In this document: positions 5,093 to 32,000 of the stretch, piece after piece
How the letters are laid out: each line of letters begins with the position of its first letter
Numbering within the stretch: position 1 is the stretch's first letter
NCBI GenBank assembly: GCA_028279745.1
Contig: JANQNC010000001.1
Location: 210,001 to 242,000, forward strand
Direction of reading: 5' to 3'
Source: Candidatus Nanoarchaeia archaeon
GTDB lineage: Archaea; Nanobdellota; Nanobdellia; Woesearchaeales; JANQNC01
DNA length: 32,000 nt
The notes under the pieces: generated by a model
The model's database searches: none
Told to the model about the DNA's origin: nothing
What the model saw: only the letters and a program-made list of their open reading frames with translations
Program-made: the position numbers and the translations under genes

Positions 5093-5425
5093 ATGAAAAA
5101 AATAATTTTGATGGCTTTATCTGTATTGATCATGATGGGGCTAAGCGGAATTGTTTTAGCACAGCCAATATGTGTGCCTGAACCTTGTTTCTTCGGACCT
5201 GGAAATGGACTTGGACCCGTACAGGATTTTTGCCCTGAAGGCGGACCAGGATGTGTATGCACTTCACCAGAACCAAATAACCCTCAACCCGTTGAGTGGT
5301 ACTGCTCAGATGAAGAACCCGAACCAATCGATGGAGAAGTTCCAGAGATAAGCACGGTCGGAATTATTGCAGTAATTGCAATAGTGGGCGGCGGAGCTGC
5401 ATGGCTAGCTAAAAAGAAAAATTAA
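5093..5425 (+). CDS. small exported Cys-rich protein with C-terminal TM anchor
   Basis: SD GAGGTGAT lies upstream of the ATG. Signal peptide MKKIILMALSVLIMMGLSGIVLAQP, Cys/Pro-rich core, then EVPEIS + VGIIAVIAIVGGGAAWLA + KKKN. Confidence 0.7.
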   Translation: MKKIILMALSVLIMMGLSGIVLAQPICVPEPCFFGPGNGLGPVQDFCPEGGPGCVCTSPEPNNPQPVEWYCSDEEPEPIDGEVPEISTVGIIAVIAIVGGGAAWLAKKKN

Positions 5426-9340: not shown

Positions 9341-10555
9341 TTGACAGACTTTATAGAAGATATTAAGAGAGAAGTAAATGAAGAGCTAGATAAGGCAACA
9401 GAAGAAGAAAAAGAAGTTATTGAAGAACAGAAAGAAGAAGAATTCTCATACAACGATGAAGAATCATTTTCAGATGTGCCAGAACAACCAAAAAGATCTC
9501 TAAAAAGTAATGATGTTGATAACGAATTAGCAAGCCTATTGTCAAAACATAAAGCAACAATCAAAGTAATAGGTTGTGGCGGTGGCGGAAACAACACAAT
9601 CAACAGAATAACTGAAGTTGGCGTGTTTGGAGCAGAAACAATAGCCATAAACACGGACGCACAAGATCTGTTGATTGCAACTGCAGATAAAAAAATTCTA
9701 ATCGGAAGAGATATTTCTAAAGGACTTGGAGCAGGATCCATACCAAAAATAGGAGAAGATGCAGCAAAAGAGTCAGAAAATGAAATTAAAGAATCACTAA
9801 AAGGAGCAGACCTAGTATTCGTAACATGTGGACTTGGAGGCGGAACCGGAACAGGTTCAGCACCAGTTGTAGCAGAGATAGCAAAAAAGTTAGGCGCTTT
9901 AACTGTAGGGATAGTAACTGTGCCATTCGCAATGGAAGGCAACAGAAGATACGAGAACGCTATTTACGGGTTAGAAAAACTAGAAAAAGTATTGGATACC
10001 ATGATCTTGATAACCAACGATAAATTACTGGAATTAGCACCAGATCTACCACTACAAACCTCATTCAAAGTAGCAGACGAGATATTAACAAACGCTGTAA
10101 AAGGCATTGCAGAACTAGTAACCAAGACAGGACTAGTGAACCTAGATTTTGCAGATATCAAGACAGTAATGGGCAACGGAGGTGTTGCGCTGATAGGAGT
10201 TGGAGAGTCAGACTCAGAATCAAGCGCGATGGAAGCTGTTGAAAAGGCTTTGAATAATCCTCTTCTTGAAGTAGACATAGAAGGCTCAAACGGAGCTTTG
10301 ATCAACGTAGCAGGAGGGCCAGATATGACCCTAGAAGAGGCAAAGATAATAGTAGAAACTGTTACAGAAAAGATGGACCAGAATGCAAGGGTAATATGGG
10401 GAGCCCAAATAGAGGACGATTTAGAAGGTATTATAAAGGTAATGTTAATTATCACAGGCGTAAGGAGCTCACAGATATTCGGGCCCGACAAAACCGTAAG
10501 TGATAAAAAGAGAAGCGAAATTGAGGATGAATTAGGAATCAAGTTCGTTGATTAA
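9341..10555 (+). CDS. ftsZ: cell division GTPase FtsZ
   Basis: [17 protein letters not shown] and the tubulin signature [22 protein letters not shown] start, since there is no in-frame ATG before the GTPase core. About 65 aa of acidic N-terminal extension. Confidence 0.95.
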
Positions 10556-18100: not shown

Positions 18101-18601
18101 TTATTGTCGTGCTCGCATTATGCCAAAGCCTGCAACACCAACAATAACAACAACAGCAATCAATAAACCATCCCCCAGCTCAGGGATTTCCTCCATTGGC
18201 TCTCCACCACATTCTGGAATCGGATCATAATAACAGCCCCCATCACAGCTATCTACAGTGCATGGATCGTCATCATCACACCAGTCTAAAATTTCATCAT
18301 ATGGACACTCTGCATTGCCTGAGTTCATAAAACAACCATGTTGGTATTCAACGTAAACCCACGTATCATCCCTAAACTCACAAACACTATAATCTTGTGT
18401 AGTACAATCGTGTATTTGAGTTGGTTCACCTTCAACACAGCTACCTTGACTACATGTAAAATTGCCTTCAACAATATCATCTGGACCTAAACAAAAGAAA
18501 GACTCAAGATCATCACAATCCTCATCTTGTTCACACTCGTGCTGTGCAAAAACAGCACCGACCACAAAAAGTAATAGTAAACTTAAAATTAGTTTCTTCA
18601 T
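18101..18601 (-). CDS. exported Cys-rich acidic protein with C-terminal TM anchor
   Basis: Signal peptide MKKLILSLLLLFVVGAVFAQ. Many Cys in a D/E-rich ectodomain. C-terminus is EEIPELG + DGLLIAVVVIVGVAGFGI + MRARQ. Confidence 0.7.
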   Translation of the reverse strand: MKKLILSLLLLFVVGAVFAQHECEQDEDCDDLESFFCLGPDDIVEGNFTCSQGSCVEGEPTQIHDCTTQDYSVCEFRDDTWVYVEYQHGCFMNSGNAECPYDEILDWCDDDDPCTVDSCDGGCYYDPIPECGGEPMEEIPELGDGLLIAVVVIVGVAGFGIMRARQ

Positions 18602-18682: not shown

Positions 18683-18964
18683 TCACTCTTTTCTTTTTAG
18701 AGTAATTTCGATTGTAGAAACTCTTACTTGTTTTCCTTCTTTGTTCTCAAACTCTTCAGAGTCAATCTTTATGTCTTTTACATCAACTTGGCCTTCAAGG
18801 AATCTTTTCACTGCAACTTCTGCAACATCAACTGCTCTGCTTATCAATTTTCCCCTAGCCTTAACAATCACTTCATCTGTCTGCTTTGTTGTGAATTGCA
18901 TAACTACTGCTGTTACATAATTCATAAAAGACTTCATACCAATAAAGATAGAGTTGTCTGCCAT
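18683..18964 (-). CDS. albA: DNA/RNA-binding protein Alba
   Basis: NSIFIGMKSFMNYVTAVVMQF, VIVKARGKLISRAVDVAEV and VSTIEITL are typical Alba blocks. 93 aa. Confidence 0.9.
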   Translation of the reverse strand: MADNSIFIGMKSFMNYVTAVVMQFTTKQTDEVIVKARGKLISRAVDVAEVAVKRFLEGQVDVKDIKIDSEEFENKEGKQVRVSTIEITLKRKE

Positions 18965-18986
18965 TTTTCTGTACCCCTGTTTTCAC

Positions 18987-19181
18987 TTAAATTTCTTTAG
19001 TGATCTTAACCAGCCTTGTTATGTAACCAGCTATACAGTTCACTAGTTTCTTTGAGTTAATCTCTGCCACTCTTGCCACTTTTTTCTTGTTCTCACTGAA
19101 ATCCTTGCCGAATTCAGGTCTGAACTCATTAAATAGCTTAAGTGATGTTCTCTTCACTAATGTCGTTTTTATACGTCCCAT
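18987..19181 (-). CDS. rps17e: 30S ribosomal protein eS17 (S17e)
   Basis: MGRIKTTLVKRTSLKLFNEF...FSENKKKV...SKKLVNCIAGYITRLVK. Confidence 0.9.
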   Translation of the reverse strand: MGRIKTTLVKRTSLKLFNEFRPEFGKDFSENKKKVARVAEINSKKLVNCIAGYITRLVKITKEI

Positions 19182-19223
19182 GCCCTTGAGGATTAAGCAG
19201 GGGTATATAAAGCTTGCTGTTTT

Positions 19224-20210
19224 CTATATATGCTTAAGGAACCAGTTATCAAAGTCTATGGCTAAACTCACCACCCCATCACTAGACACTTTTTTGTCTT
19301 GCAGAGCAAGGATCTGATCATTTATTCTTTTAACATCATAATCATTCCCAAGATATGTTGGAAGAATCTCTTTCAGTCTGTGAAGAACAGTTACAACCTT
19401 CTTATTCTTTTTAGTAAACTTCAGATCTTTAATCATCCGCACATACTTCCCAACATCATAAGCAGTTCTATCATCTACTTTTTTAGCAAGATTATCATCC
19501 AAAGGTTTTATCTTTGAAAAAATCTTAGCTTTGTCTTTAATAAAACCAAGGTCAAGAACCGGTTCTTTTAATCTTAAAAAGCTGACATGTCTTGAAAGAG
19601 TATCAACATTATCATAAAAACAACCTTTTTGTGAGAATCTAAAAGGCATATACTGAAAGTCATAAAGATACTGGATCAGATCTCCAAGATTATAGGTGTG
19701 TAATGTTGCTCCATTAATCTTCTTTTTCTCAACATAGCTACACCTGTACTTTCTCACTTCATCATCATCTACAATATTATACTGTTGATGGTTAATATCA
19801 AATTTATGATAGGTAGTATCAATCAATACATATCCATCTTTGTAATCAACAGCAGAACAAGCATGATTTACTTTGTCTCCTTCGTTGTCTTTTGATACAA
19901 ATGCAACCCTACTGTTAAAACCCAAAAATCTTGCCATAGTTACAAATAAAAAAGACTGTTCAATACAGTTACCTTTTTTCTCATTGAAAACATCCAAAGA
20001 ATTTCTTTGTCTTGGGTAATCAGAACTGTAAGCGATATTATCCTGAAAATAGTCAAATATTTTTTTCAGTTTATCGTGTAATTGGCCTTTGTTCATACTT
20101 TCTGCAATAGGGATAAGCTTATAGGGCATTATGAAAGGATCTGCATACTTTTTTTCAACTAAAGAGATAACATAGTCATTTTTCATACTACCATATATGC
20201 ATCTTATCAT
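19224..20210 (-). CDS. transglutaminase-like cysteine protease-fold protein with unknown C-terminal half
   Basis: Cys-His-Asp core in family order and spacing: KKGNCIEQSFLFVTMARFLG, VNHACSAV, GYVLIDTT. Confidence 0.75.
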   Translation of the reverse strand: MIRCIYGSMKNDYVISLVEKKYADPFIMPYKLIPIAESMNKGQLHDKLKKIFDYFQDNIAYSSDYPRQRNSLDVFNEKKGNCIEQSFLFVTMARFLGFNSRVAFVSKDNEGDKVNHACSAVDYKDGYVLIDTTYHKFDINHQQYNIVDDDEVRKYRCSYVEKKKINGATLHTYNLGDLIQYLYDFQYMPFRFSQKGCFYDNVDTLSRHVSFLRLKEPVLDLGFIKDKAKIFSKIKPLDDNLAKKVDDRTAYDVGKYVRMIKDLKFTKKNKKVVTVLHRLKEILPTYLGNDYDVKRINDQILALQDKKVSSDGVVSLAIDFDNWFLKHI

Positions 20211-20261
20211 TTAATAGAACTCACAAAGAAAAACCGAAAGAAATAACAAAAAGATCAGAAA

Positions 20262-22514
20262 TTAAGCAACAGCCCTGTATTCATCCTTAACCTTTATCCC
20301 TTTTGTAAGGATCTCTTTCAAGTTCTTAAGAGCTGATACTTCTGAAGGTTTTAATTTATAGTAATGATTTTCATTCTTTATCAATCTGTCAAGGTGTGCA
20401 TTTAATCTCTTGCTTTGTATATCCACAATATGTCTATTGTCATAAACTTTTTTGTATGCAAAGTCAAACTTCTCTTCAGTAAATGAGAAATTTGCAGTTG
20501 TTCTTCTCTCAAGAAGGGCATAATAACTATGTGTATTTTTCAACTGGTTCCAAGCACCAAGGCTTTGATAATAAAGAAGAACTTCAATCGTAAGCAGATC
20601 TTTCTGCTTCATAACATCTGCAACATAAGCTTCAGGCAACTCTTCTAGACTTTTTATTGTCTTAGAGTAATCAACATCATATTTGCTTTCAGGCAAATAA
20701 CCATTATATTTCTGACCGTTAAGAGTTTTATTAGTGTTAAACTCGACACGCGCATTGTGTCTTCTTATCACTGAACCTTCAAATCTCTTATCTATACTGT
20801 CAAAGAAGTCATTTCCGATATGGTCATATAGATAACTTAAGTTGTCAAGCACCCATTTGTCCCATATAACTCCATCCAGATCATACTGCAACATAACTTC
20901 TATAAACTCGTCGGGTTCCCCATTTTTACCCTCACACTTTATTTTATGCCTTACTAAGTGTTCAGTGTTTTCGATATCTGCATGACAATGTGCTACAGAC
21001 TCACTGCTTCTATAACAGTTAAGTACTGGTTTGAGTGATTCTTCAAGTCTTCTTTGAGTTTCTGTGTCAATCTCAAAATTACCTATGATATTGCTCTCTT
21101 CTTTTATCAGGTTGATCTTTTGTGCCATGAGCAGGTCACCACGACCAATCTCTTCTTTTCTAACCTTATCATCAAAGTATTTCCATAAGGCTAATCCAAT
21201 TACTGAATTATTAATCCTCTCTTGGTGATATCCTACAGGATTATGTTCTTCACTGTCAGAGCTGGCAGGTCGTACGATACCACACCATTTGCCACCCACA
21301 TCTCTAATGTCCTCCATGAAGAAACTTCCTGTTTCACTGTTTATATCAATTGTCTGATCACACAACCCCATCGATTCTTGCTTTTGTTCTGTCAGAATAT
21401 CAACTATCTCATCTAACATGCCTTTTCTCTTTTGCTCAGTAAGATTATCAACAATCTCTTCCAATACACTATCCCTATCAGGTAAATTAAAATCTTCCCC
21501 TTCTTTTTCTAACAGCTCTTTCTTTTTTCTATTCAAGTACTCTTCTACCATCTCTTTCTTATTTCTGCTTATATGATTTTTTAGCATGCCTATCAGTCTA
21601 GGAGCATTTTCCTCTTTTGCTTGTTTTAGACTATCATTAAAATAAAACATCTCAATATCGTTTGTTGGAGCCGGCAAGTTTTCCATGTAAATGTTGTCTT
21701 TCTCTGTGAAAACAGGCTTAACAACTCTAGCTTTTCTGCCGAAAAGGAACTTCATCTGTGCAGTCTCGTAATCACAACGGTCGTCCCTCTTCTTTCTCCT
21801 TCCACTAATATCATTAAATCCTGCGCTTTTAGGTATTATGTACTGCTTACGGAAGTAAGGTGTTGTGACGATGGTCTTATCTGAATCTGGATTTTTGACT
21901 TGAACCAGGATCTTAGAAAGCTTAGTGTATAAATGCCTTAAACCTTTATCATTAACAACATACTCAAATACTTTTATTTCAGCACCCGGTTTTGCTATCC
22001 CTTCATTCTCAAGCTGTGCACGATATGTTGTATTAACAAAGCTAAGAAACTTTTCATATTTTTCTCCCTTAAGTTCTATTTTTCTTTTCTCGTCCTTTTT
22101 AATCTCTTTAAAGTGTTCTACTGCCCCTTCAAGTGTCTTTGGCAAGACATCAGTTAGCTTCTCTTTGTCAAGCAGGTCATAAGCTCCCAACTTTATTGCT
22201 TCCTCTTTCCCCATCCCCCCTTTAAGTTTATCAGAGGCGGTCATCAAAATAACAGGTGTATTTATGTTTTTCTTACTGGTATATCTTAAGATATCAAAAC
22301 CACCTTGCTTTGGCATGACAACGTCACAAAGGATAACATCTACAGCTCTCTTATTTATCTGTTCGATTACCTTCTTTCCACTGCTGACTGGAATTATGTT
22401 ATAGTTAACATCAGAATTACTCTCTATTATTTGCGTAGCTAACTTAACCATATCAGGCTGATCATCAGCCACAATTATGTTGACAATATCTTTCTTCTCC
22501 ATTTTTTTAACCAT
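20262..22514 (-). CDS. response-regulator receiver domain fused to a large module ending in a PI3/PI4-kinase-like (type II PI4K-like) domain
   Basis: REC: IIVADDQPD, VDVILCDVVMPKQGG, PVILMTASD, AIKLGAYDLLDK. C-terminal blocks resemble type II PI4K as I recall it: TGSFFMED...GIVRPASSDSEEHNP...GYHQE (compare SGSYFVKD...AVFKPKNEEPYGHLNP...GYLSE), ADIENTEHLV (compare DRGNDNWLI) and YDLDGV (compare IDNGLAFP). The kinase assignment is an inference. Confidence 0.65.
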   Translation of the reverse strand: MVKKMEKKDIVNIIVADDQPDMVKLATQIIESNSDVNYNIIPVSSGKKVIEQINKRAVDVILCDVVMPKQGGFDILRYTSKKNINTPVILMTASDKLKGGMGKEEAIKLGAYDLLDKEKLTDVLPKTLEGAVEHFKEIKKDEKRKIELKGEKYEKFLSFVNTTYRAQLENEGIAKPGAEIKVFEYVVNDKGLRHLYTKLSKILVQVKNPDSDKTIVTTPYFRKQYIIPKSAGFNDISGRRKKRDDRCDYETAQMKFLFGRKARVVKPVFTEKDNIYMENLPAPTNDIEMFYFNDSLKQAKEENAPRLIGMLKNHISRNKKEMVEEYLNRKKKELLEKEGEDFNLPDRDSVLEEIVDNLTEQKRKGMLDEIVDILTEQKQESMGLCDQTIDINSETGSFFMEDIRDVGGKWCGIVRPASSDSEEHNPVGYHQERINNSVIGLALWKYFDDKVRKEEIGRGDLLMAQKINLIKEESNIIGNFEIDTETQRRLEESLKPVLNCYRSSESVAHCHADIENTEHLVRHKIKCEGKNGEPDEFIEVMLQYDLDGVIWDKWVLDNLSYLYDHIGNDFFDSIDKRFEGSVIRRHNARVEFNTNKTLNGQKYNGYLPESKYDVDYSKTIKSLEELPEAYVADVMKQKDLLTIEVLLYYQSLGAWNQLKNTHSYYALLERRTTANFSFTEEKFDFAYKKVYDNRHIVDIQSKRLNAHLDRLIKNENHYYKLKPSEVSALKNLKEILTKGIKVKDEYRAVA

Positions 22515-23451
22515 AACTTATCCTTGTAAGAGAGTGAACTGAAGACATAAGTGCTCTAAGCTGTCCCACCAGATCATAAATTATGCCCTGCTTTTCCTCG
22601 CTTTCGAAGAATGCGTCAATAGCCTTCATCACATCTTTCCTTTCATCAGAAACTGTGTAAGCTAGCATCTTGTCCTTTCCATAATAAGCTTTCATAGTGT
22701 CAAGATAGTTCTTCTCTATCTTTGAATAGATCGAGATTAAATCATCCTTGCCCCGCTTCTTAAGATCAAGCAGAGGGAAAATTCTTGAAAGACGCTTTAT
22801 AGAATCTGCGGTCTTTTCCAGATTGAATGCGAAGTTCCATGAACTCATCAATGCAACAAGATCCATCTTCATATTTTTCATGACAGACGGGTCAGTCATT
22901 GCAGACTTAACTGCTCGGAACACCAAGAATACTAATCTGTTAACATCATCATCTCTTTGGTCAAGATTTTCTGTTTCTTTACCTAAAAAAGAATTTTTAG
23001 TGTCAATAACCATCGACCTTATGATTATGTCTATTTTTCTAACAAGATTCACAATAGAAATATCTTTCATGTTAAGGAAATCTTTTGCAATTATCTTATC
23101 TCCACTTTCCTGCATTATTTCCAATGCAACTAAACCGTGAAGAATGTGTCTGATGCCTTTAGCTTTTTTCTTTATATCAGAACCAGAAATATAAAGTACA
23201 TTTACATTGTTAATGTATGATGAAATGATCTCTCTTTTTAGAAATTCTAAACTTTTTCCATCAGTGTTAATCTTTATCTCAACAGGATCTTTTTCAACTT
23301 TTGCAGAAGCAGGCGATAGTGTAAGTTTGTTTAACTCTTCAGAAACATAGATGATGTCGCCTTTGTTAAGGCTGTGCTTATCCATCCAGTCCCTTGGCAA
23401 AGAAAGGACGTAGGAAGATTTTCCAAATGCTATAATCTTTCTAGTTTCCAT
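22507..23451 (-). CDS. AbrB/SpoVT-domain + PhoU-domain regulator (archaeal phosphate-uptake-regulator type)
   Basis: N-terminus KIIAFGKSSYVLSLPRDWMDKHSLNKGDIIYV has a swapped-hairpin AbrB pattern. Two PhoU-like helical repeats follow (DDDVNRLVFLVFR...). Its stop overlaps the next gene's ATG by 8 nt. Confidence 0.8.
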   Translation of the reverse strand: METRKIIAFGKSSYVLSLPRDWMDKHSLNKGDIIYVSEELNKLTLSPASAKVEKDPVEIKINTDGKSLEFLKREIISSYINNVNVLYISGSDIKKKAKGIRHILHGLVALEIMQESGDKIIAKDFLNMKDISIVNLVRKIDIIIRSMVIDTKNSFLGKETENLDQRDDDVNRLVFLVFRAVKSAMTDPSVMKNMKMDLVALMSSWNFAFNLEKTADSIKRLSRIFPLLDLKKRGKDDLISIYSKIEKNYLDTMKAYYGKDKMLAYTVSDERKDVMKAIDAFFESEEKQGIIYDLVGQLRALMSSVHSLTRISYG

Positions 23452-23650
23452 ATTTTCACCATTTCTTTAGTTCGATTAATCACCCCGCAGGTAAGCAACG
23501 ACACCTTATTCTAACTATAAGTGTAAAATGTCTATTTACTCATCCCCCAAACATATACCCCCTATGCAGTATATAAAGAATAGAGAGTAACTATATATAT
23601 TTAAATCTTACTATACTATAGTAGAATACATATAATCAGGGGTGGTTGCT

Positions 23651-23800
23651 ATGAAAGATATATTTTATGAAATTGAGAAAGATCTGCTTCCAGACCGGTT
23701 AAAACAGGTGAAAACAGACGAATGGGACACTGAGAAAGGTATTGATGAAATAGATGAATGGGACACATCATGGGTAAAGGAAACCGATACCGGAAGCTAA
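23651..23800 (+). CDS. candidate small acidic Trp-rich protein (49 aa)
   Basis: Below the track cutoff. SD GGGGTGG lies 6 nt before the ATG. MKDIFYEIEKDLLPDRLKQVKTDEWDTEKGIDEIDEWDTSWVKETDTGS. It appears paralogous to the next ORF. Confidence 0.4.
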   Translation: MKDIFYEIEKDLLPDRLKQVKTDEWDTEKGIDEIDEWDTSWVKETDTGS

Positions 23801-23878
23801 AAACATATAGTGTATTTGTTGTATATAAGATAGACATATAAGCAAAGTTAGCTTATAAACTGATAGGGGGTGCATATT

Positions 23879-24034
23879 ATGAAAGATAAATTGTTCAAGA
23901 GATTGGATGAGGAAAATATCTTTTTAGATGATATGGACATATATACAGAAGAGGCCCGAGAAAAAGAAGTTGAAAATGATGAACTAGACTGCTGGGAAGC
24001 TGCCTGGATGCAGGGCTACGAAGAAGCAAGATAA
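23879..24034 (+). CDS. candidate small acidic Trp-rich protein (51 aa)
   Basis: SD GGGGGTG lies 6 nt before the ATG. MKDKLFKRLDEENIFLDDMDIYTEEAREKEVENDELDCWEAAWMQGYEEAR. A strong hairpin plus T-tract follows. Confidence 0.45.
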   Translation: MKDKLFKRLDEENIFLDDMDIYTEEAREKEVENDELDCWEAAWMQGYEEAR

Positions 24035-24060
24035 AACTCATTCCTCATAACTGCTGAGTC

Positions 24061-24100
24061 GGCTATCCTCTCGCGAGGATAGCCCCTCCGTGTTTTATTT
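24061..24100 (+). terminator. stem-loop plus T-tract terminator-like element
   Basis: Perfect 10-bp stem GGCTATCCTC / GAGGATAGCC with loop TCGC (24061-24084), then CCTCCGTGTTTTATTT. Confidence 0.55.
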
Positions 24101-24209
24101 AATATAGAGTGGAAAATGATTTTTTTAGATATATTAATTATTTTCTATATGGAAAATAAATGGGCTATGACAAGCTTTAAATAAGCAAATTCTCAGGAAT
24201 GGCTTTTAA

Positions 24210-24998
24210 ATGGAAAAAGTAATTTTTACAGATTTAGATGGCACATTGTTGGATCACGATACTTATTCTTATGCAGCAGCAAAAGATGCTTTGAAGATAG
24301 TGAAAAAGCAGAAAATTCCTTTGGTGTTTTGTACAAGTAAAACAAGAGCAGAAATTGAGCATTACAGAAAAAAGTTTGGCAACAAAGATCCATTCATAGT
24401 GGAAGATGGCGGAGCAATATTTATCCCAACAGGATACTTTGATTTTGAATTTAAGAATGATGGCAAAGTTGGCAAATACTATGTGATCGAGTTAGGGACT
24501 CACTATGACAGATTGTTAAGAGTTGCAGAAGCGATGGAGAAAAAGTTTAGTCTAATAAAAACATTTCACGATATGACTGTAAAAGAGACAGCAAAAGATA
24601 CAGGGATGACTGTTGCGCAATCAAGAAGAGCCAAAAAAAGAGAATATGATGTTGTGTTTAAAATTTTGAAAAAGGACGAGGTTGAGAAAGAGATTCTTAG
24701 AGAGATCAAGAAACACAAACTGAATTATGTTATTGGCGGAAGATACTACCATATTGTCGGAGATAATGACAAAGGAAAAGCTGTAAAAATATTACTTAAA
24801 TTATTTAGAAAGAAATTTGGAAAAGTAAAATCAATAGGATTGGGAGATTCACAAAATGATTTCTCAATGTTAGAAAGCGTTACAGTGCCTTACTTAGTCA
24901 AGAAAAAATCCGGAAGGTATTCTTCCAAAAAATACAATCACGCAGATGGAATAGGACCAAAAGGCTGGAATAGAGCAGTCAAAAAGGAGTTGGAATAA
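24210..24998 (+). CDS. HAD-IIB phosphatase of the mannosyl-3-phosphoglycerate phosphatase (MPGP/YedP) family
   Basis: VIFTDLDGTLLDHDTYSY, PLVFCTSKTRAEIE, IVEDGGAIF, GLGDSQND. A TATA (TTTAAATA) ends 27 nt upstream, which suggests a near-leaderless mRNA. Confidence 0.8.
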   Translation: MEKVIFTDLDGTLLDHDTYSYAAAKDALKIVKKQKIPLVFCTSKTRAEIEHYRKKFGNKDPFIVEDGGAIFIPTGYFDFEFKNDGKVGKYYVIELGTHYDRLLRVAEAMEKKFSLIKTFHDMTVKETAKDTGMTVAQSRRAKKREYDVVFKILKKDEVEKEILREIKKHKLNYVIGGRYYHIVGDNDKGKAVKILLKLFRKKFGKVKSIGLGDSQNDFSMLESVTVPYLVKKKSGRYSSKKYNHADGIGPKGWNRAVKKELE

Positions 24999-26242
24999 TG
25001 ATCGATAAGAAAAAAGCAGATGCAATCTACAGAAAAAGCATTCAAGTTCTGAAAACAGTGCAGTTACCAAACGGAGGATGTTTAGCGACACCACCAGGAG
25101 CAAGATACCCTTACGTTTATCCTAGAGATCACGCAATAATAATTTTAGGCATGATATCTGCAGGGATGATGAAAGAAGCAAAGAAAGGAATTGATTTCGT
25201 GATGAAATCAGAACTAGAATCAGGAGCATTTCCACAAAGACTTGATAAAAAAGGAAACGATGCATCATACAAACCGATACAGATAGACGGAACAGGATTA
25301 ATTCTATATGCATATGCAGAATATGTTAAAGCAACAAATGACACCAAGTTTGCAGAGAAACACTGGGACAGAGCAAAAAGAGCAGTACACTATATTGTAG
25401 AAAACTTCTATGGCGAAAAACAATTGATCTTCACACCAAACTCAATACACGAGTTCCCACCAACAGAAGAAGGATTAGAGATCTGGGCTAATTGTACTTG
25501 TCATGCGGCACTTGAAAAAATGTACGAGCTTGGTGAATTATTAAATCATAAACACAACGAATGGAAGGAATTAGCCATAACAGTAAAAGAAGGAATAATG
25601 AGATATATGTGGAACGATAGGATTGGAACTTTTATCAAAAATGTAAGAATAAAAGAATCAAGTTCTGCTTTAGTTGACACAGATGCATCAGAATATGCAG
25701 TTGCAGATTATGGAGTTTTACCTGATGACGATCCTCGGGTTAGGTCCACAGTTAAAGATATTGAAAAAGATCTGTGGAACAAAGACTTAGGAGGATTATG
25801 CAGATATCCAAAATATGAAGGAAGAAATAATGGTGGATGGGGCCCGTGGCCGCACTTTACATTAATGGTTGCAAGACATTTTATTCGGTTGAGTGATAAG
25901 AAACGAGCTGACAAGTACATGAAATGGGTGATAGACCACACTTATGGCAATCTGATTCCAGAACATTTAGCGACAAAAAAAGAATTCGAAGAATATGTAA
26001 CAGACTTTACACAAGCTGGTTTGTTAAGGAAGGATAGGATGATAATGATAGAGAATGTAAGAAAACATCCTATGTTTAAGAAAAAAGGAGTTGCTTATGT
26101 GATAATACCTTTAGCATGGCCACATGCAGAATTCATCAGAACGTATAATTTGTATAAAGAAGCTTTCATCAACGGGAAGAAAGTTAAGAAGAAGGCAGTT
26201 AAGAAAAAAGCTAAAAAGAAAGTAACTAAAAGAAAAAAATAG
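24998..26242 (+). CDS. GH15-like (alpha/alpha)6-barrel glycoside hydrolase, catalytic domain only, with poly-Lys C-terminal tail
   Basis: YPYVYPRDHAIIILG, IQIDGTGLILYAY, GGLCRYPKYEGRNNGGWGPWPHFTLMVARH. C-terminal KKVKKKAVKKKAKKKVTKRKK. Start overlaps the upstream stop (TAATG). Confidence 0.75.
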   Translation: MIDKKKADAIYRKSIQVLKTVQLPNGGCLATPPGARYPYVYPRDHAIIILGMISAGMMKEAKKGIDFVMKSELESGAFPQRLDKKGNDASYKPIQIDGTGLILYAYAEYVKATNDTKFAEKHWDRAKRAVHYIVENFYGEKQLIFTPNSIHEFPPTEEGLEIWANCTCHAALEKMYELGELLNHKHNEWKELAITVKEGIMRYMWNDRIGTFIKNVRIKESSSALVDTDASEYAVADYGVLPDDDPRVRSTVKDIEKDLWNKDLGGLCRYPKYEGRNNGGWGPWPHFTLMVARHFIRLSDKKRADKYMKWVIDHTYGNLIPEHLATKKEFEEYVTDFTQAGLLRKDRMIMIENVRKHPMFKKKGVAYVIIPLAWPHAEFIRTYNLYKEAFINGKKVKKKAVKKKAKKKVTKRKK

Positions 26243-26254
26243 ATTGATGACAAA

Positions 26255-27157
26255 ATGGAATTCAAGAAAAGAAAAGAACCTATACTGACACCAGATCCTT
26301 CTCTAAAACATGAAAGGTTTTGCGTGTATAACCCTTGTGCAGTAAAACATAAAGGTAAAATTTACATGATCTATAGAGCAGAAGGGAAATATGATGAATA
26401 TGTTTCTACATTATGTCTTGCTACAAGTACAGATGGAATCAACTTTAGAAAGTATAAGAAAAACCCAATCATAAAACCCACAAGAAAAGAAGAAAAAAGA
26501 GGTTGTGAAGATCCAAGAATCACAAAAATAGGAGATACTTTCTACTTAACGTATACTGCGTTTGAAAAAGCTAACCCTGGAGAGAAAGGGAAAATAAATT
26601 TATCACTAGCAACATCAAAAGATCTAATCCATTGGAAGAAAAAAGGAATTATAATCAAGAATTACAAATCAGGAATTATCCTGCCTGAGAAAGTTAATGA
26701 TGAGTACCTGATGTTCATTGGAGATACAAACATCAAAGTGGCAAGATCAAAGGATTTATTGAGGTGGAAGTTAGACAAAAAACCCTTGATGAGTGTTCGC
26801 TCAAAAAAGTTTGATTCTAAATTAGTTGAAACAGGACCTCCACTGATTTATGACAATAACAAAATACTATTCATTTACAATTCAGCAGATAAGTTGATCA
26901 GGTATCATGTTGGATATTGTGTTCTGGATAGGCTTAACCCCTGCAAGATATTTAAGAGGTGCTCTGAACCAATATTAAGTCCAACAGAACAATTTGAATT
27001 GTATGGAAAAGTAAATAATGTAGTGTTTGCAGAAGGACTAGTAGAACATAAAGGAAAATATTTCTTGTATCATGGTGGCGCAGACAAATGTGTTGGTGTT
27101 GCAATTGCAAACAAAAAAGACGTATTTAAACTAATCAGAAATTCTCAATCTTACTAA
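26255..27157 (+). CDS. GH130 family glycoside phosphorylase/hydrolase (DUF377)
   Basis: FCVYNPCAVKHKGKIYMIYRAEG, LATSTDGINF, GCEDPRITKIGDTFYLTYTAF, YHGGADKCVGVA. Confidence 0.85.
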   Translation: MEFKKRKEPILTPDPSLKHERFCVYNPCAVKHKGKIYMIYRAEGKYDEYVSTLCLATSTDGINFRKYKKNPIIKPTRKEEKRGCEDPRITKIGDTFYLTYTAFEKANPGEKGKINLSLATSKDLIHWKKKGIIIKNYKSGIILPEKVNDEYLMFIGDTNIKVARSKDLLRWKLDKKPLMSVRSKKFDSKLVETGPPLIYDNNKILFIYNSADKLIRYHVGYCVLDRLNPCKIFKRCSEPILSPTEQFELYGKVNNVVFAEGLVEHKGKYFLYHGGADKCVGVAIANKKDVFKLIRNSQSY

Positions 27158-27431
27158 CTTTTTTAGTAGTTAACATATAATACAAGGTGCAAACCACACC
27201 ATCCCCATTAGACTTCTTTTTAAAATCTCTAATCATCCTATCATCACGATCCTTAACGACATAAAACTCTTCCATGCCTTTGTAAAGAACCTGAAGAACT
27301 GCTTTTTGTTGATTGCTAGCTTTCATAGTTCTCAAAGCTGCATCCAAAGAGCCTTCTTTGTTTTCAGCCATGATCTCTTTAATCCTTTCCGTTGTATAGT
27401 TAGGCATAAGTTGAATGGCAAGAGAATTCAT
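27135..27431 (-). CDS. hypothetical protein (98 aa)
   Basis: ORF only. Its 3' end overlaps the convergent GH130 gene by 23 nt. No motif recognised. Confidence 0.4.
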   Translation of the reverse strand: MNSLAIQLMPNYTTERIKEIMAENKEGSLDAALRTMKASNQQKAVLQVLYKGMEEFYVVKDRDDRMIRDFKKKSNGDGVVCTLYYMLTTKKVSKIENF

Positions 27432-27442
27432 ATATAAAATTT

Positions 27443-27856
27443 ATGAACAAAAACTATTTAAATAGGAAAACTAGGTTATATATTATGGTATACACACCAC
27501 AAAAGCATCCGAAGCAAGCATTGATACTGATAACAGTTATTGCATCAGCAGGAATACTGGGCGGGTTATACATTTCAGAATACTTCTTAGGAATTGCACT
27601 GATGTTCTGGATGCAGTATACAGCAGTGTTAAGTTATTTACAATTTAAACACAAACACGAAAAAATAAAAGACGGAATAAATGTTTATTTACTAAATCCT
27701 ATTTTGAGATTCTTTATCTTTGAACTAATCGCATTTTGGGGACTAGCAATGTTGATATGGTGGGAAACAAAACTAGTCGGAATATTAGCACTGGCAGCAT
27801 GGTGGATATTCTCATTGAACTTCTATTTCTATTACAAAAAGAGAACTAGTAAGTAA
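27443..27856 (+). CDS. small integral membrane protein (about 4 TM helices)
   Basis: Hydrophobic segments ALILITVIASAGILGGLYI, FLGIALMFWMQYTAVL, FFIFELIAFWGLAMLIWW, GILALAAWWIFSLNFYF. Confidence 0.6.
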   Translation: MNKNYLNRKTRLYIMVYTPQKHPKQALILITVIASAGILGGLYISEYFLGIALMFWMQYTAVLSYLQFKHKHEKIKDGINVYLLNPILRFFIFELIAFWGLAMLIWWETKLVGILALAAWWIFSLNFYFYYKKRTSK

Positions 27857-28757
27857 GAGTCGCTTCTAAAAATCCGTAATCTTTTTTCATAGCAACACTT
27901 AGTGACTTATCCTCGTTAGTGTAACCAAGCCCACAAGTCAATACTTTTCTATTGCCCGCATTATCCATGCCTGCACGCAAAGCAAAGTTGCCAACTTTCT
28001 GTTCAATACCTGCTCTAATGCCTGGACTCCCCACTACAATAAAATTCAAATATTTAGCAAACGGTGCCAAAGCACTATAATAGCTAGAAGCTAATGTCAA
28101 GTCTCCTAGTTTATTATTTATTGTGTAACTAATGCCCGGTCTTAAATTTAATGCCTTAACATGCAAAGTAGACCAAGTCCTTGCCAAAACTCCCAGCCTT
28201 AATCTGTCATCATCAGTCAAAAGATTGCTTTTTTGGAATAAACCACTTAGCTCATAATCTAAAAACCTTCCTTGTCTTTTTTTATCATCACTCGTTTCAT
28301 GAATCCTCTTTGGAGTTATTGCTCCGCCAACTGAAAAGTTATCATTAATCTTGAAACCCGCAGCAATCTTTAACCAGTTCATAGTTTCGTTATAATCTGC
28401 ACCCTCTTTTATTATGTATTTTCTTCCTTCAAAAGAAAGATCCTTTATGTCTTGGCTAGAGTTCATCAACTGAAGACCCAAACCTAACCTGCCCAGTAGT
28501 GGAGTAGCAAAAGATAAAGTGTTATCATATCTATATGATTCACAATTACCTACAAGTTTTGTAAAAGTAAGAGCAGGTCTTTTTAGAAAAGGTATCTTTG
28601 CTTGATTCCAGTAGGTCGAGTTAGCATCATCACTTATAGTTATGCCCGCGTGACCCATAGCCATCTGCTTAGCACCAGTGCAAGCTTGATTCACAGATGT
28701 GTGTAAAAGTAAAGCAATCAGTGCAGTTGACAATGTTCGTTTTAGTTTTTTGATCAT
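27846..28757 (-). CDS. exported bacterial outer-membrane-like beta-barrel protein (FadL/TraF/PorV-like N-terminal motif)
   Basis: Signal peptide MIKKLKRTLSTALIALLLHTSVNQA. Then GAKQMAMGHAGITISDDANSTYWNQAKIPF, which resembles the G.R..GMGGA..A..D....NPA motif of these barrels. About 14 alternating amphipathic strands (RLGLGLQLMN, WLKIAAGFKIN, NFALRAGMDN, LTCGLGYTN...). C-terminus is LEATLTY, ending in an aromatic residue. Confidence 0.65.
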   Translation of the reverse strand: MIKKLKRTLSTALIALLLHTSVNQACTGAKQMAMGHAGITISDDANSTYWNQAKIPFLKRPALTFTKLVGNCESYRYDNTLSFATPLLGRLGLGLQLMNSSQDIKDLSFEGRKYIIKEGADYNETMNWLKIAAGFKINDNFSVGGAITPKRIHETSDDKKRQGRFLDYELSGLFQKSNLLTDDDRLRLGVLARTWSTLHVKALNLRPGISYTINNKLGDLTLASSYYSALAPFAKYLNFIVVGSPGIRAGIEQKVGNFALRAGMDNAGNRKVLTCGLGYTNEDKSLSVAMKKDYGFLEATLTY

Positions 28758-29854
28758 CTTTTTCTTACCATATATACTTTATCAGGAAGGTTTCCAAATT
28801 CAAACTTCTCTCTAGATGCTTTCATCTCGCAATGGGATTCTGTAGGCACTATGTATATTTGTACTCCCCCCATACTTGGCAATGGACGCATCACTTGAAC
28901 GATGTCTTTAGGCAGTACAAATCTGCTGTTCATCTTATCTATCAGAACAGGATTATACTCTCCGGTTATAGAACCTGTAAACTTATCTCTAGAAAACATT
29001 TCATGATACCATTTCATCCTGTTAAATGAATCATTAAGTGTTACAAATCTTTTGTCAGTTATCTTAATGCCTTTTTCTTCTCCAAAATAGAAATATTGGT
29101 CTCTCCATCTTAAAGAATTAAATAATCCTTCAGCAAAAGCTTCACAAAGATCTTCAGTCTCCTCATCGGTTCTTGTAACAATTGTTGTGTTCTTGTTTGC
29201 TAGTTCGCTAAAACCGCCAGTTCTGCAGCCGTCAACAATCATTACATTGCCTTTTGTTTTGAGATGTTTAAAGTGGTAATTAAATCCTTTAGGATTCCAA
29301 ACAATCAGGTCTTCTGGATCTCCGCTTGATCCCAGAGTAAGTATGTTGCTTGTTTTTTTCTTTTCATTATAATATCCATGGCCTGTGATGTACAAAAAGA
29401 ATTCGCTGTTAGAATCTAGTTTTTTCGCACCATCCAATAAGTATCTTAGATTTTTTGAAGTTGGCGGTCCGATTATACGGGGGACTGTCAAAACAGGATA
29501 CTTATGCATAACATTGTACACGATTGATGTTAAATCTCCCCCCGTCTCTGCTTTCTTTCCTTTCGCGACTTTTTCTATGTTTTCTTCATCTTGGTAGTTT
29601 GCATAAGGAACGCTAAGAACTTTTATGTCATTCTCATTAAACCCTATCCACCTGAAAAAATTGTATGAACGCAACACATTATCCATGTGATGATCTTCTT
29701 CAGCATGATTAACAATAACAGCCAAACCTTTCCTGCTTCCTGTGTTGTACTTTGAGTTTCTTGATGTTGCTTGGTATAAACCAGGAGCACATGATGAAAC
29801 TAAAGCTGCTAAACCTGCGCCGCCTGCTGTTGTTAGAAAGTTTCTTCTGTTCAT
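28754..29854 (-). CDS. Tat-signal lipoprotein, clan CD (legumain/gingipain/caspase-like) cysteine peptidase
   Basis: Twin-arginine signal MNRRNFLTTAGGAGLAALVSSC with a lipobox-like Cys. Catalytic dyad context FFLYITGHGYY and VMIVDGCRTGGF in clan CD order. ATGA overlap with the barrel gene. Confidence 0.7.
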   Translation of the reverse strand: MNRRNFLTTAGGAGLAALVSSCAPGLYQATSRNSKYNTGSRKGLAVIVNHAEEDHHMDNVLRSYNFFRWIGFNENDIKVLSVPYANYQDEENIEKVAKGKKAETGGDLTSIVYNVMHKYPVLTVPRIIGPPTSKNLRYLLDGAKKLDSNSEFFLYITGHGYYNEKKKTSNILTLGSSGDPEDLIVWNPKGFNYHFKHLKTKGNVMIVDGCRTGGFSELANKNTTIVTRTDEETEDLCEAFAEGLFNSLRWRDQYFYFGEEKGIKITDKRFVTLNDSFNRMKWYHEMFSRDKFTGSITGEYNPVLIDKMNSRFVLPKDIVQVMRPLPSMGGVQIYIVPTESHCEMKASREKFEFGNLPDKVYMVRKR

Positions 29855-29856
29855 TT

Positions 29857-30372
29857 CTATACCTCGATATTTAATTCATAACCCAACCTATTTGCGATTA
29901 GTAAAACAGCCTGGTCAACTGCTTTACTTCTTGAAGCATATCCTGGGAAACCTTTAACAACTTCCAGTTTTGGGTTATCTAACCCACATAATAATCTGGT
30001 TTCTGGCGTTATTAACATCCCAATGTATGTTTTGTTTTCTTTGAAGTGTTCTTTGAATCCTTCAAGATCTGCTTCTGAAAAGTTTCTTGCGTAATATTCT
30101 CCGAACTTTTCTATAGTTCCTTTTGAATGTGTGTGGAATTTAACAAAGTTATATTCTGGATTTTTTTCAAAAAATTCATTGACTATGGCCATTCTTTCAG
30201 GAGTTGAGCTTACGTGTCCTTCTGTTCCTTTTCCTGTGATAAATATTGTTTCAATAGGACAGTATTCTTCTTTGGGTCTGTATAATAAAACACCATTCAC
30301 TTCAGATTTTAGATTAGCAAGGCTAACCAATCTCTGTTCTAGTTCTTTTGGCAGTAATACTGTTCGTTTCAT
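29857..30372 (-). CDS. JAB/MPN-like (JAMM variant) protein
   Basis: Upstream Glu (SEVNGVLLY), FHTHS, and SEAD. These match the E...HxH...SxxD elements of JAMM, but the spacer between HxH and SxxD is longer than canonical. Confidence 0.5.
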   Translation of the reverse strand: MKRTVLLPKELEQRLVSLANLKSEVNGVLLYRPKEEYCPIETIFITGKGTEGHVSSTPERMAIVNEFFEKNPEYNFVKFHTHSKGTIEKFGEYYARNFSEADLEGFKEHFKENKTYIGMLITPETRLLCGLDNPKLEVVKGFPGYASRSKAVDQAVLLIANRLGYELNIEV

Positions 30373-30920
30373 CTTTCTACAGCTCCTTCTTTAACCATAC
30401 TGGAACCTTTCATATCAATAGCATCTAAAGGTATTAACAGTTCAGGAATCTCATATATCTCTCCTGACTTTTTGTTTTCCCAAGATGACCTGCAGTTCAC
30501 TTTGCCAGTTGGCTTGTATTCCTGAAGAAAGTTTTCAAGAATGTGAGAATTATTCCAATATTCAGGAATCTTTTCTGCTCTTCTTAGGCTTACAATCTCT
30601 CCAGCAAGCAGGTGGGGTGCTACAACACATCTTTTCGGGTTAACTGAAATTTCAGCCCAGTAAGATTTTTCTAACTCGCCCTGGCTTGGTTTACTTAAGT
30701 AAGCATAAACTGAATTAAGTATTGGGTTTCCATTCCAAATCTCCCCGTATTTTTCTGGCGCGGCTTGACCAAACTTTTCTAGAATCGCTAGCCCCAGTTT
30801 AGCACCTGCTTTCATTGAATCAGTTCCGTTTCTTAGCCATTCCTCAAGGCCTTCACGATAACTTCTGAACTCCAATCTAGGAAAATTTCCCATGTTTCTG
30901 TAAACTTTAACTTGAGTCAT
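30369..30920 (-). CDS. hypothetical protein (183 aa) of the operon
   Basis: The track start is GTG at 30929. The ATG at 30920 forms an ATGA overlap with the upstream stop and has GGGTGG 6 nt upstream, so it is preferred. No motif recognised. Two Cys (NPKRCVVAPH, VNCRSSW). Confidence 0.6.
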   Translation of the reverse strand: MTQVKVYRNMGNFPRLEFRSYREGLEEWLRNGTDSMKAGAKLGLAILEKFGQAAPEKYGEIWNGNPILNSVYAYLSKPSQGELEKSYWAEISVNPKRCVVAPHLLAGEIVSLRRAEKIPEYWNNSHILENFLQEYKPTGKVNCRSSWENKKSGEIYEIPELLIPLDAIDMKGSSMVKEGAVER

Positions 30921-31384
30921 CTTTTCCACCCTTGTTTAATTAAAGATTTGATGTATACGTTTAAGGTGTATATCCTCCTGTCGTCTTCAAAATCCATCTC
31001 TTCAAAAGTAAAGAGAGTATTATGACGGTTAAGAACCCCCACATATATTTCCTTAAGTGTGCAGTCATTATAAGGCCATCTAGGCATCTCTTCGTTCTGT
31101 TTAAGTTTTAATAATTCATCCAAATCCTCTTGAGTGTAAAGTATAATTGAATCAATACTTTTTCCCCTTAAAGAAAAGCCGATAGATCTTTGGTTGCCAT
31201 CCAACACAAGATATTTATCTGTCTGTTTATAGGGTGTTGTTACAATTGGAAAATTAAAAAATTTTAGGCATTCTTCAGGTGCAGAATCAGGGTTGTCGAT
31301 CATCTTGATAACATTATCTGAAGTATCGTTACGTATATCGTCAACAGGTACAAGCTGTTCTGCTATAAGTTTTGTTCTTTTCAT
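30917..31384 (-). CDS. ParB/sulfiredoxin-fold (ParB N-terminal domain-like) protein
   Basis: LVPVDDIRND ... FPIVTT ... YLVLDGNQRSIGF follows the ParB-N pattern (target-proximal Arg, then a hydrophobic-DGxxR box). 155 aa, with no HTH evident. Confidence 0.5.
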   Translation of the reverse strand: MKRTKLIAEQLVPVDDIRNDTSDNVIKMIDNPDSAPEECLKFFNFPIVTTPYKQTDKYLVLDGNQRSIGFSLRGKSIDSIILYTQEDLDELLKLKQNEEMPRWPYNDCTLKEIYVGVLNRHNTLFTFEEMDFEDDRRIYTLNVYIKSLIKQGWKR

Positions 31385-32000
31385 TTCCTTATCCTCACCA
31401 TCATTGCATAATCATAATCATCTAGGTTGATAAAAGAAAAATTCTCTTTAGGTACAAAGTTCAAATAATCAAGAACTCTCTGTTCTGTGTATCTTTGAGA
31501 CCACCAGCCTTCTTTTGTTGATGTAAAACAATCTTCTTTATTGGATGTTATTGTCCAACCAAAGTTTCTGTAAGTCTCTTCCTGTTTCTTTCTAGTTTCA
31601 TCAGTATCTATGTACATAGATCCGATTATTATCTCTCCATCAGGATTAAGCATCTCATGTGCTTGTTTGAATATACTTGTGAATTTGTCATTTTCTGTCA
31701 GATCATACCCCTGCGTGTAGTTTTTGATATCATACCCAAAAGGATAGAAGTTACCTGCAGTGAACCAGGTTGTGATTATCATATCATATTTTTTGTCTAA
31801 AGTTTTAAGATCTACAGCATCTAGTTGTGTTATGTTTACTTTACCTTCAAGACCCATATCACTGACAACTTCAGTTGAGATATCAATACAATCTTGAGCT
31901 ACATCTATTCCCTCATACGCTCTTATGGCATTTGATATATCTTGATGTTTGAATAATTCCTTAATCAGTCTTCCATCTCCAACACCAATATCAAGTATTG
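31381..32000 (-). CDS. class I SAM-dependent methyltransferase; 5' end beyond window
   Basis: The frame stays open upstream of the track Met to the window edge. My translation from 31998 is ILDIGVGDGRLIKELF (motif I), then YEGIDVAQ, LDAVDL, YDMIITTWF. No DPPY/NPPY or PCQ DNA-methyltransferase motif is visible. Confidence 0.8.
   Translation of the reverse strand, partial: ILDIGVGDGRLIKELFKHQDISNAIRAYEGIDVAQDCIDISTEVVSDMGLEGKVNITQLDAVDLKTLDKKYDMIITTWFTAGNFYPFGYDIKNYTQGYDLTENDKFTSIFKQAHEMLNPDGEIIIGSMYIDTDETRKKQEETYRNFGWTITSNKEDCFTSTKEGWWSQRYTEQRVLDYLNFVPKENFSFINLDDYDYAMMVRIRK

Follow-up and report, generated by a model that had tools for sequence, protein, structure and literature searches.

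We analysed a 32,000-nucleotide stretch of DNA (the window) from the 1.3-Mb genome of a Candidatus Nanoarchaeia archaeon and found on its minus strand, at positions 27846-28757, a gene whose 303-residue product is predicted by structure modelling to be a 14-stranded β-barrel of the FadL/PorV superfamily and of the outer-membrane type. Its sequence predicts a monomeric protein exported by the Sec pathway. Overall we favour, with a probability of roughly 0.55, the reading that this protein represents a barrel subfamily of DPANN archaea that is of bacterial origin, resides in a membrane other than the cytoplasmic one and has no PorU-like partner. The gene directly upstream encodes a putative exported peptidase, and a first-pass annotation made from the sequence alone had proposed that the two proteins form a processing or attachment pair resembling PorV and PorU of the bacterial type IX secretion system (T9SS).

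The barrel protein and its superfamily

The first-pass annotation had read the protein as a β-barrel of about 14 amphipathic strands with a C-terminal aromatic residue, and structure modelling, fold comparison and profile searches bore this out. An AlphaFold2 (AF2) model built on an alignment of four homologues contained 14 strands after an N-terminal segment of ~60 amino acids (predicted local distance difference test (pLDDT) 73.5, predicted template modelling score (pTM) 0.73). DSSP placed these antiparallel strands, which make up the body of the barrel, at residues 62-302 (positions 27852-28574, minus strand); the strands alternate between polar and hydrophobic residues, with one face of each kind. 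Foldseek comparison of the model with the PDB returned PorV of the T9SS translocon as the top match (6h3i chain F; E = 1.2e-10, query TM-score 0.69) and FadL/TodX proteins at ranks 2-12; FadL, TodX, CymD and Bacteroidota barrels associated with the β-barrel assembly machinery (BAM) all followed PorV. The fold match to PorV suggests that the barrel is closed. A 79-sequence profile of the family (A4, window protein included) matched the same PorV chain nearly end to end (E = 1.5e-17), and the FadL homologue of P. aeruginosa (3dwo) at E = 1.4e-5. A single-sequence search of the PDB with the N-terminal hatch peptide gave no match, and the broad profile alone succeeded. The protein closes with an alternating hydrophobic strand, FLEATLTY, and has a terminal tyrosine where most homologues have phenylalanine. 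Within the 19-leaf clade described below, 15 members end in Phe, P0002 has an extension and P0016 ends in FE, in a tally that leaves out L015 and L017. Such an aromatic end would be compatible with a BAM-type C-terminal β-signal.

The N-terminus is composed of two parts. Residues 1-26 (28680-28757, minus strand) read as a signal peptide, MIKKLKRTLSTALIALLLHTSVNQA followed by Cys. The pair Ala25-Cys26 (nucleotides 28680-28685) is invariant in all 22 aligned homologues and near-universal among the top 60 matches; an Ala-Cys pair at the end of the signal peptide is common to the archaeal and bacterial members with short barrels, and PorV lacks the Cys. A canonical lipobox was considered for the invariant Cys and rejected, the residue at position -2 often being E, D, K or Q. 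Residues 27-57 (28587-28679, minus strand) carry the motif TGAKQMAMGHAGITISDDANSTYWNQAKIPF, which corresponds to the hatch (plug) of the superfamily: it aligns with ARAAGLGDQGVATSSDVFSQQWNPAKYAF of PorV and with NNPAAMAF of the P. aeruginosa FadL homologue, and residues 33-66 of the T9SS_OM_PorV model align to residues 27-60 of the barrel. The signal peptide and the N-terminal motif named in the first-pass annotation were both correctly recognised, the motif being the hatch motif of the family. WNPA of PorV and FadL appears as YWNPA in the bacterial relatives and as YWNQA in the archaeal-type clade.

Set beside known systems, the window protein resembles PorV (LptO) of the Bacteroidota T9SS (6h3i chain F) in being a 14-stranded FadL-type barrel, and an N-terminal pattern, G-A-[RK]-x-x-[AG]-x-G ... 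D-D ... W-N-[PQ]-A, aligns in both. It differs from PorV in being ~100 residues shorter, with short loops, in having the invariant Cys at the mature N-terminus and in carrying NQA for NPA. With FadL/TodX/OmpP1 (PF03349; 1t1l, 3dwo, 3bs0) it shares the fold of the superfamily and an NPA-type hatch, at ~277 mature residues compared with ~420. A third parallel is offered by uncharacterised short bacterial barrels of the 'PorV/PorQ family' (for example L019), which share with the window group a length of 280-320 amino acids, the Ala-Cys pair, the strand layout and the C-terminal Phe; they are 25-30% identical to the window barrel, and the archaeal-type subfamily stands apart from them (89% bootstrap).

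Archaeal and bacterial relatives

The first-pass annotation had placed the barrel on an archaeal contig, and this assignment held. The window encodes ribosomal protein S17e (18987-19181, minus strand), an Spt5-NGN/KOW protein and a prolyl-tRNA synthetase (ProRS) with an archaeal/eukaryal C-domain, which we take to be archaeal markers on established knowledge of these families; FtsZ is encoded as well. A contig from an independent Logan assembly (L005, 12,811 bp) matches window positions 18811-31621 with 100% identity and joins the S17e, barrel and peptidase genes. The GC content of the barrel and peptidase genes is 0.37, compared with 0.36 for the surrounding genome and window. Because the second contig is identical across the junction and the GC content of the genes matches that of the window, a chimeric junction at 27.4-28.0 kb is very unlikely.

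A profile search of 1.84 billion representative sequences recovered 493 relatives of the barrel at E ≤ 1e-3, including 17 at E ≤ 1e-30; a word-indexed search found three other close relatives only. Those closest relatives whose surroundings could be read are all accounted for here; six have clear archaeal contexts. P0002 lies on a 240-kb contig of a 'Candidatus Nanoarchaeia archaeon' near the genes for L21e, Rpb4, eIF2-gamma, S6e and SepF, and L017 on a 206-kb contig together with Taw1 (Wyosine_form) and DUF134. P0009 is flanked by FEN1 and PolB/CDC48, P0008 adjoins a threonyl-tRNA synthetase (ThrRS) with an archaeal editing domain and Mre11/Rad50, P0006 lies with a TFIIS-type Zn ribbon and a PF1765-like gene, and P0018 lies with OapB and a GTPase, apparently in two tandem copies. 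On the contig of the latter (ENA ERZ1426824), the tandem open reading frames (ORFs) of 315 amino acids each occupy positions 367-1314 and 1325-2272 beside OapB/GTPase, the first being P0018. The contexts of P0011/L099, P0013/L101 and P0016/L102 are ambiguous between archaeal and other, and these three are not counted among the six.

Relatives at ≤30% identity carry the signature ACVGARP...YWNPAGL, and two of their contexts were examined. L019 represents a diderm bacterial context with MMPL, a LolA-like protein, DUF1302 and RlmN; L022 has high GC and TPR matches only, and is presumed bacterial. P0014 (L103 3398-4285) lies on a bacterial contig of 39% GC with RNase Y, HU, YmdB and ClpP nearby and bears the archaeal-type signature ACTGAKQ...YWNQ; it could represent the donor lineage or a back-transfer. 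A match in IMG/VR (L014) was dismissed as spurious, falling within a tail-fibre-like ORF.

In a crude neighbour-joining (NJ) tree the sequences from archaeal contexts fell into a group of 19 leaves with P0014 as its sister, and the 19 leaves together with P0014 and P0022 had 89% NJ bootstrap. The ratio of nonsynonymous to synonymous substitution rates (dN/dS) was ~0.25 between L017 and L015, which suggests purifying selection on this one close pair. These comparisons point to a distinct subfamily with the signature A-C-T-G-A-K/R-Q ... Y-W-N-Q, found mostly in DPANN-type (Nanoarchaeia-like) archaea. The subfamily was most likely gained from diderm bacteria and then spread and diversified among these archaea. 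A family that is overwhelmingly bacterial, with bacterial-type motifs in most of its 493 representatives, might raise the suspicion of an assembly error that placed bacterial DNA on an archaeal contig, or of a recently transferred gene that is now decaying. We find either scarcely credible: the second assembly is identical over the junction, the GC content is that of the genome, the reading frame is uninterrupted, orthologues with archaeal markers on their flanks are present on six or more further archaeal contigs, and dN/dS is 0.25 in the close pair.

Several homologues lie among restriction-modification (RM), toxin-antitoxin (TA) and insertion sequence (IS) genes, and one lies on a contig resembling a mobile element. 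The latter homologue, P0004, is 34% identical to the window barrel and occupies positions 8521-9459 of L003 (JGI Ga0247413_1265861; 25.6 kb, 28.6% GC). L003 looks virus- or plasmid-like, containing two YopX genes, a PD-(D/E)XK exonuclease and dozens of tiny ORFs in two divergent gene blocks; no capsid, terminase or integrase was recognised in its gene content. An element of this type may have been a vehicle of spread among DPANN archaea. Defence or mobilome genes were often seen near other homologues (L001 11627-17329, L095 2420-5980, L102 3227-3589 and 8765-9845, L099 3738-5206), the gene types being Schlafen/AlbA_2-HATPase, MmeI-like and Eco57I-like RM, IS240, IS200/605, PIN and HEPN-MNT. 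Because homologues often adjoin such genes, the distribution suggests that the barrel gene sits in variable genomic islands.

Alternatively, the barrel might be cargo of a mobile element or virus (a 'moron') that viruses or plasmids carry from one DPANN genome to another. Its function would then be tied to the element and not to host nutrition, for example in superinfection exclusion, in a vesicle or virion membrane, or in receptor masking. The virus- or plasmid-like contig of P0004 and the adjoining RM, IS and TA genes of other homologues speak for this, as does the six-gene block of the window, where only the barrel and the peptidase gave even weak family matches. However, neither L003 nor the window block contained an identified capsid, terminase or integrase, several copies lie between housekeeping genes (ThrRS, TFS, FEN1/PolB), and a fold search of BFVD gave no convincing viral structural match. 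We consider the cargo explanation unlikely.

Two loci hold peptidase genes of another kind. At L017 15106-20649 (minus strand), 4 kb from the barrel copy, lies the gene for a secreted protein of 1,847 residues that has an M23 domain at residues 888-951, and on L097 a Peptidase_M15_3 gene (9353-9877, minus strand) lies directly upstream of the barrel copy. Since archaea, to our knowledge, have no murein, these neighbours hint at interaction with bacteria. Peptidoglycan hydrolases and predatory traits have been reported in Woesearchaeota/Nanoarchaeota (PMC9723730, PMC12352652). About 6 kb from the L097 homologue, at L097 16599-17588, an AbrB-PhoU architecture recurs that is also present in the window, probably by coincidence; in the window (20262-23451, minus strand) an AbrB/MazE-PhoU fusion precedes a 750-residue protein that has a receiver domain at its N-terminus and a long stretch with no family assignment.

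The putative peptidase neighbour and the proposed pair

The peptidase gene (28754-29854, minus strand; 366 amino acids) overlaps the barrel gene, its stop codon and the barrel start forming the ATGA seen in aaaagATGAtcaaa; both ORFs and their coupling were as the first-pass annotation had described them. The public gene call for the barrel uses a TTG start eight codons downstream, yielding 295 residues. The ATG start is more plausible, as it adds the basic n-region KKLKR of the signal peptide. Barrel and peptidase are the final two genes in a co-directional block of six running from 31857 to 27846. Upstream of the peptidase lie four closely spaced ORFs (171, 186, 155 and 158 amino acids; 29857-31857, minus strand), which overlap by 4-13 nucleotides or are separated by 2-nucleotide gaps and probably belong to one operon with the peptidase and the barrel. 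None of the four had a noteworthy match in Pfam, NCBIfam or PADLOC, and tblastn searches of more than 100 fetched loci found no homologue of them near other barrel genes, returning self matches only. By eye, the 171-residue ORF shows a JAB-like H-x-H...S-x-x-D pattern; the 155-residue ORF gave a weak ParB/Srx-like match (SerK, E = 0.0033), and the 158-residue ORF resembles the C-terminal part of an S-adenosylmethionine (SAM) methyltransferase. On the other side the six-gene block adjoins a sugar-metabolism trio (24210-27157, plus strand) encoding a HAD phosphatase (S6PP/Hydrolase_3), a GH15-like protein of the glucoamylase family and a GH130 mannoside phosphorylase.

The first-pass annotation had described the peptidase as an exported lipoprotein of clan CD. 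Export was the firmer part. The N-terminus (29789-29854, minus strand) carries a twin-arginine translocation (Tat) signal, NRRNFLT, that scored 18.1 bits against TIGR01409 (cut-off 16.7) and just under threshold against Pfam TAT_signal (E = 8.6e-4), and VSSC at residues 19-22 (Cys22) reads as a lipobox; together these features predict a Tat-exported lipoprotein. The putative catalytic segment (29216-29401, minus strand) runs from FFLYITGHG (His159) to NVMIVDGCRTG (Cys210), the two residues lying 51 positions apart and each motif following a hydrophobic stretch. We take this arrangement of GHG and DxCxxG to be a clan-CD pattern closest to that of family C14. Searched as a hydrophobic run and GHG, 30-70 amino acids, then a hydrophobic run and DxCxxG, the motif pair had no other instance among the 1,327 ORF segments with 150 or more amino acids (446 k residues in total) that the window and the fetched loci supplied.

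Membership of the clan was less firm. Peptidase_C14 (PF00656) was the sole Pfam family matched, at E = 0.0047 with the whole protein and at E = 0.002 (18.3 bits, under the cut-off of 21.4) with the core; the 120-residue His-Cys segment by itself scored 17.1 bits. The NCBIfam model caspase_w_EACC1 matched residues 150-223 at E = 0.094. Searches of PDB sequences with the whole protein and the core matched no clan-CD chain, and a single-sequence AF2 model had a pLDDT of 33. A word-indexed search of 5.8 billion proteins, which misses distant relatives, returned the peptidase itself and therefore no close homologue; PADLOC returned nothing, and tblastn against plasmids only noise. Metacaspases of family C14 have the motifs SGHG and DSCHSG, and the window protein resembles them in its order of a hydrophobic strand with GHG, ~50 residues, and a hydrophobic strand with D-x-C-x-x-G. 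On these grounds we judge that the peptidase probably belongs to clan CD, as a caspase-like, C14-like cysteine peptidase.

PorU is a different protein: it has ~1,100 amino acids and a C-terminal domain (CTD) of its own. The window peptidase, with 366 amino acids and a Tat lipoprotein N-terminus, showed no match to Peptidase_C25/PorU in Pfam and NCBIfam even at E ≤ 10, and an identity as PorU or another C25 peptidase was rejected. An identity of the barrel as T9SS PorV proper was rejected likewise. Against the NCBIfam T9SS PorV model (NF033710) it scored 30.8 bits (E = 1.6e-7) where the cut-off is 250, the hatch alone aligning, and the 32-kb window contains no T9SS gene. Three surface or secreted proteins read from the window sequence (1751-4933, minus strand; 5093-5425, plus strand; 18101-18601, minus strand) were possible cargo. 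Each ends in an acidic segment rich in Pro and Glu, followed by a transmembrane (TM) helix and basic residues at the tail; in two of them, both small and rich in Cys, the segment reads E[IV]PE[IL]. The three had no NCBIfam match at E ≤ 0.01 and matched no T9SS CTD family in Pfam. These C-termini look like the sorting layout of the archaeosortase/exosortase type.

The genomic comparison bears on the same point. No homologue of the peptidase was found beside any other barrel homologue (tblastn, more than 100 fetched loci; self matches only). The neighbours at those loci being unrelated, the pairing seems to be lineage-specific: by sequence it is private to this genome, and the barrel gene stands alone as an accessory gene whose partners are not conserved from locus to locus. 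Within this genome the ATGA overlap makes co-expression of the two likely. A sorting pair in the manner of PorV and PorU, in which the barrel binds C-terminal signals and the clan-CD peptidase cleaves the cargo and anchors it on the surface, would draw on the position of PorV as closest solved relative of the barrel, on an exported, translationally coupled neighbour with a clan-CD-like dyad and on window surface proteins sharing a C-terminal motif. It has to contend with the absence of the pairing from all other barrel loci examined, the missing C25 match, a barrel score far under the T9SS PorV equivalog level, surface proteins with TM and basic-tail anchors of the archaeosortase type, the lack of any further T9SS gene in the window and a wider short-barrel family that spans bacterial contexts other than Bacteroidota. 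We therefore regard the pair put forward by the first-pass annotation as very doubtful. That annotation had also entertained a pore activated by the peptidase; adjacency of the two genes was all that could be found for it, and the idea is not supported.

Possible location and role of the barrel

We favour a barrel that acts outside the cytoplasmic membrane. After export, the precursor would be cleaved between Ala25 and Cys26, and the mature protein would fold into a lipid bilayer distinct from the cytoplasmic membrane. Most plausibly this would be the outer membrane of a bacterium that serves the archaeon as partner or prey; the archaeon might also carry the barrel in vesicles or a second membrane of its own. 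There, in the manner of FadL and PorV, the barrel may offer hydrophobic molecules, lipids among them, a docking site or a channel gated by the hatch. Ultra-small DPANN archaea generally rely on partners for lipids. The more specific proposal that Nanoarchaeia-type DPANN archaea place a FadL/PorV barrel in a bacterial partner or prey, or in an outer membrane of their own, for uptake of lipids or other hydrophobic compounds is one we put forward only tentatively.

A rival reading would have the DPANN hosts themselves diderm, the barrel being an archaeal outer-membrane protein for passage of nutrients or lipids over the second membrane. The subfamily is kept in several archaeal genomes, with one tested pair under purifying selection; the barrel exterior is hydrophobic and the C-terminal aromatic residue conserved, and apparent tandem paralogues occur on one contig. 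Yet neither BamA/Omp85 nor another outer-membrane protein family was present in the archaeal loci read, and the gene is patchy and often in variable islands, unlike a core envelope component. Ignicoccus has the one well-described archaeal outer membrane, and we know of no β-barrel porin in it. We hold diderm hosts of this kind to be distinctly improbable.

A number of observations weigh against our favoured reading of an acquired, non-cytoplasmic barrel. The NPA motif is NQA in the window barrel and in the core archaeal clade, NPA being retained in the bacterial members, and the hatch region is poorly supported in the AF2 model, with pLDDT below 50 at residues 2-48. The barrel matches NCBIfam PorV_fam (NF033709) over residues 27-192 at E = 9e-14 and 51.8 bits, where the cut-off is 90, and Pfam Toluene_X (PF03349) at E = 0.0028 and 16.7 bits, where it is 29.7; the shortfall against NF033710 was given above, and the Pfam PorV model gives 13.6 bits with a cut-off of 27. 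As it scores under every curated cut-off, the barrel does not qualify as a member of NF033709, PF03349 or NF033710. These sub-threshold matches nonetheless agree in indicating one superfamily, and in favour of it, among 22 relatives, 19 match PorV_fam (best E = 2.9e-24) and seven match Toluene_X. Strict archaeal monophyly received 34-40% NJ bootstrap, P0014 falling inside the group in 29% of replicates. Peptidoglycan hydrolases are neighbours at only two of ~9 loci. The ATGA coupling could reflect a real functional link between barrel and peptidase in this one lineage. Finally, we know of no archaeon with BAM machinery, nor of a route by which a monomeric barrel, still unfolded, could be delivered from the outside into the outer membrane of another cell.

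β-Barrel outer-membrane proteins and BAM are regarded as distinguishing marks of diderm bacteria and of the organelles descended from them, and archaea are thought to lack them. Full-text searching of the literature turned up no account of archaeal barrels of the PorV/FadL type; one paper mentions only that Altiarchaeales may have a distant PopA-like relative (PMC12228718). The window barrel is apparently an undescribed, archaeal-resident member of a known superfamily. Its subfamily, which is selectively maintained and lies among archaeal housekeeping genes on seven or more independent contigs of DPANN type, raises the questions of how such a barrel would fold without BAM, which membrane it would enter and whether it is used on bacterial hosts. 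If the barrel does reside in a non-cytoplasmic membrane, it would be the first functional family of β-barrel outer-membrane proteins of Archaea, and it would provide molecular evidence of cell-surface interaction between an archaeon and a bacterium.

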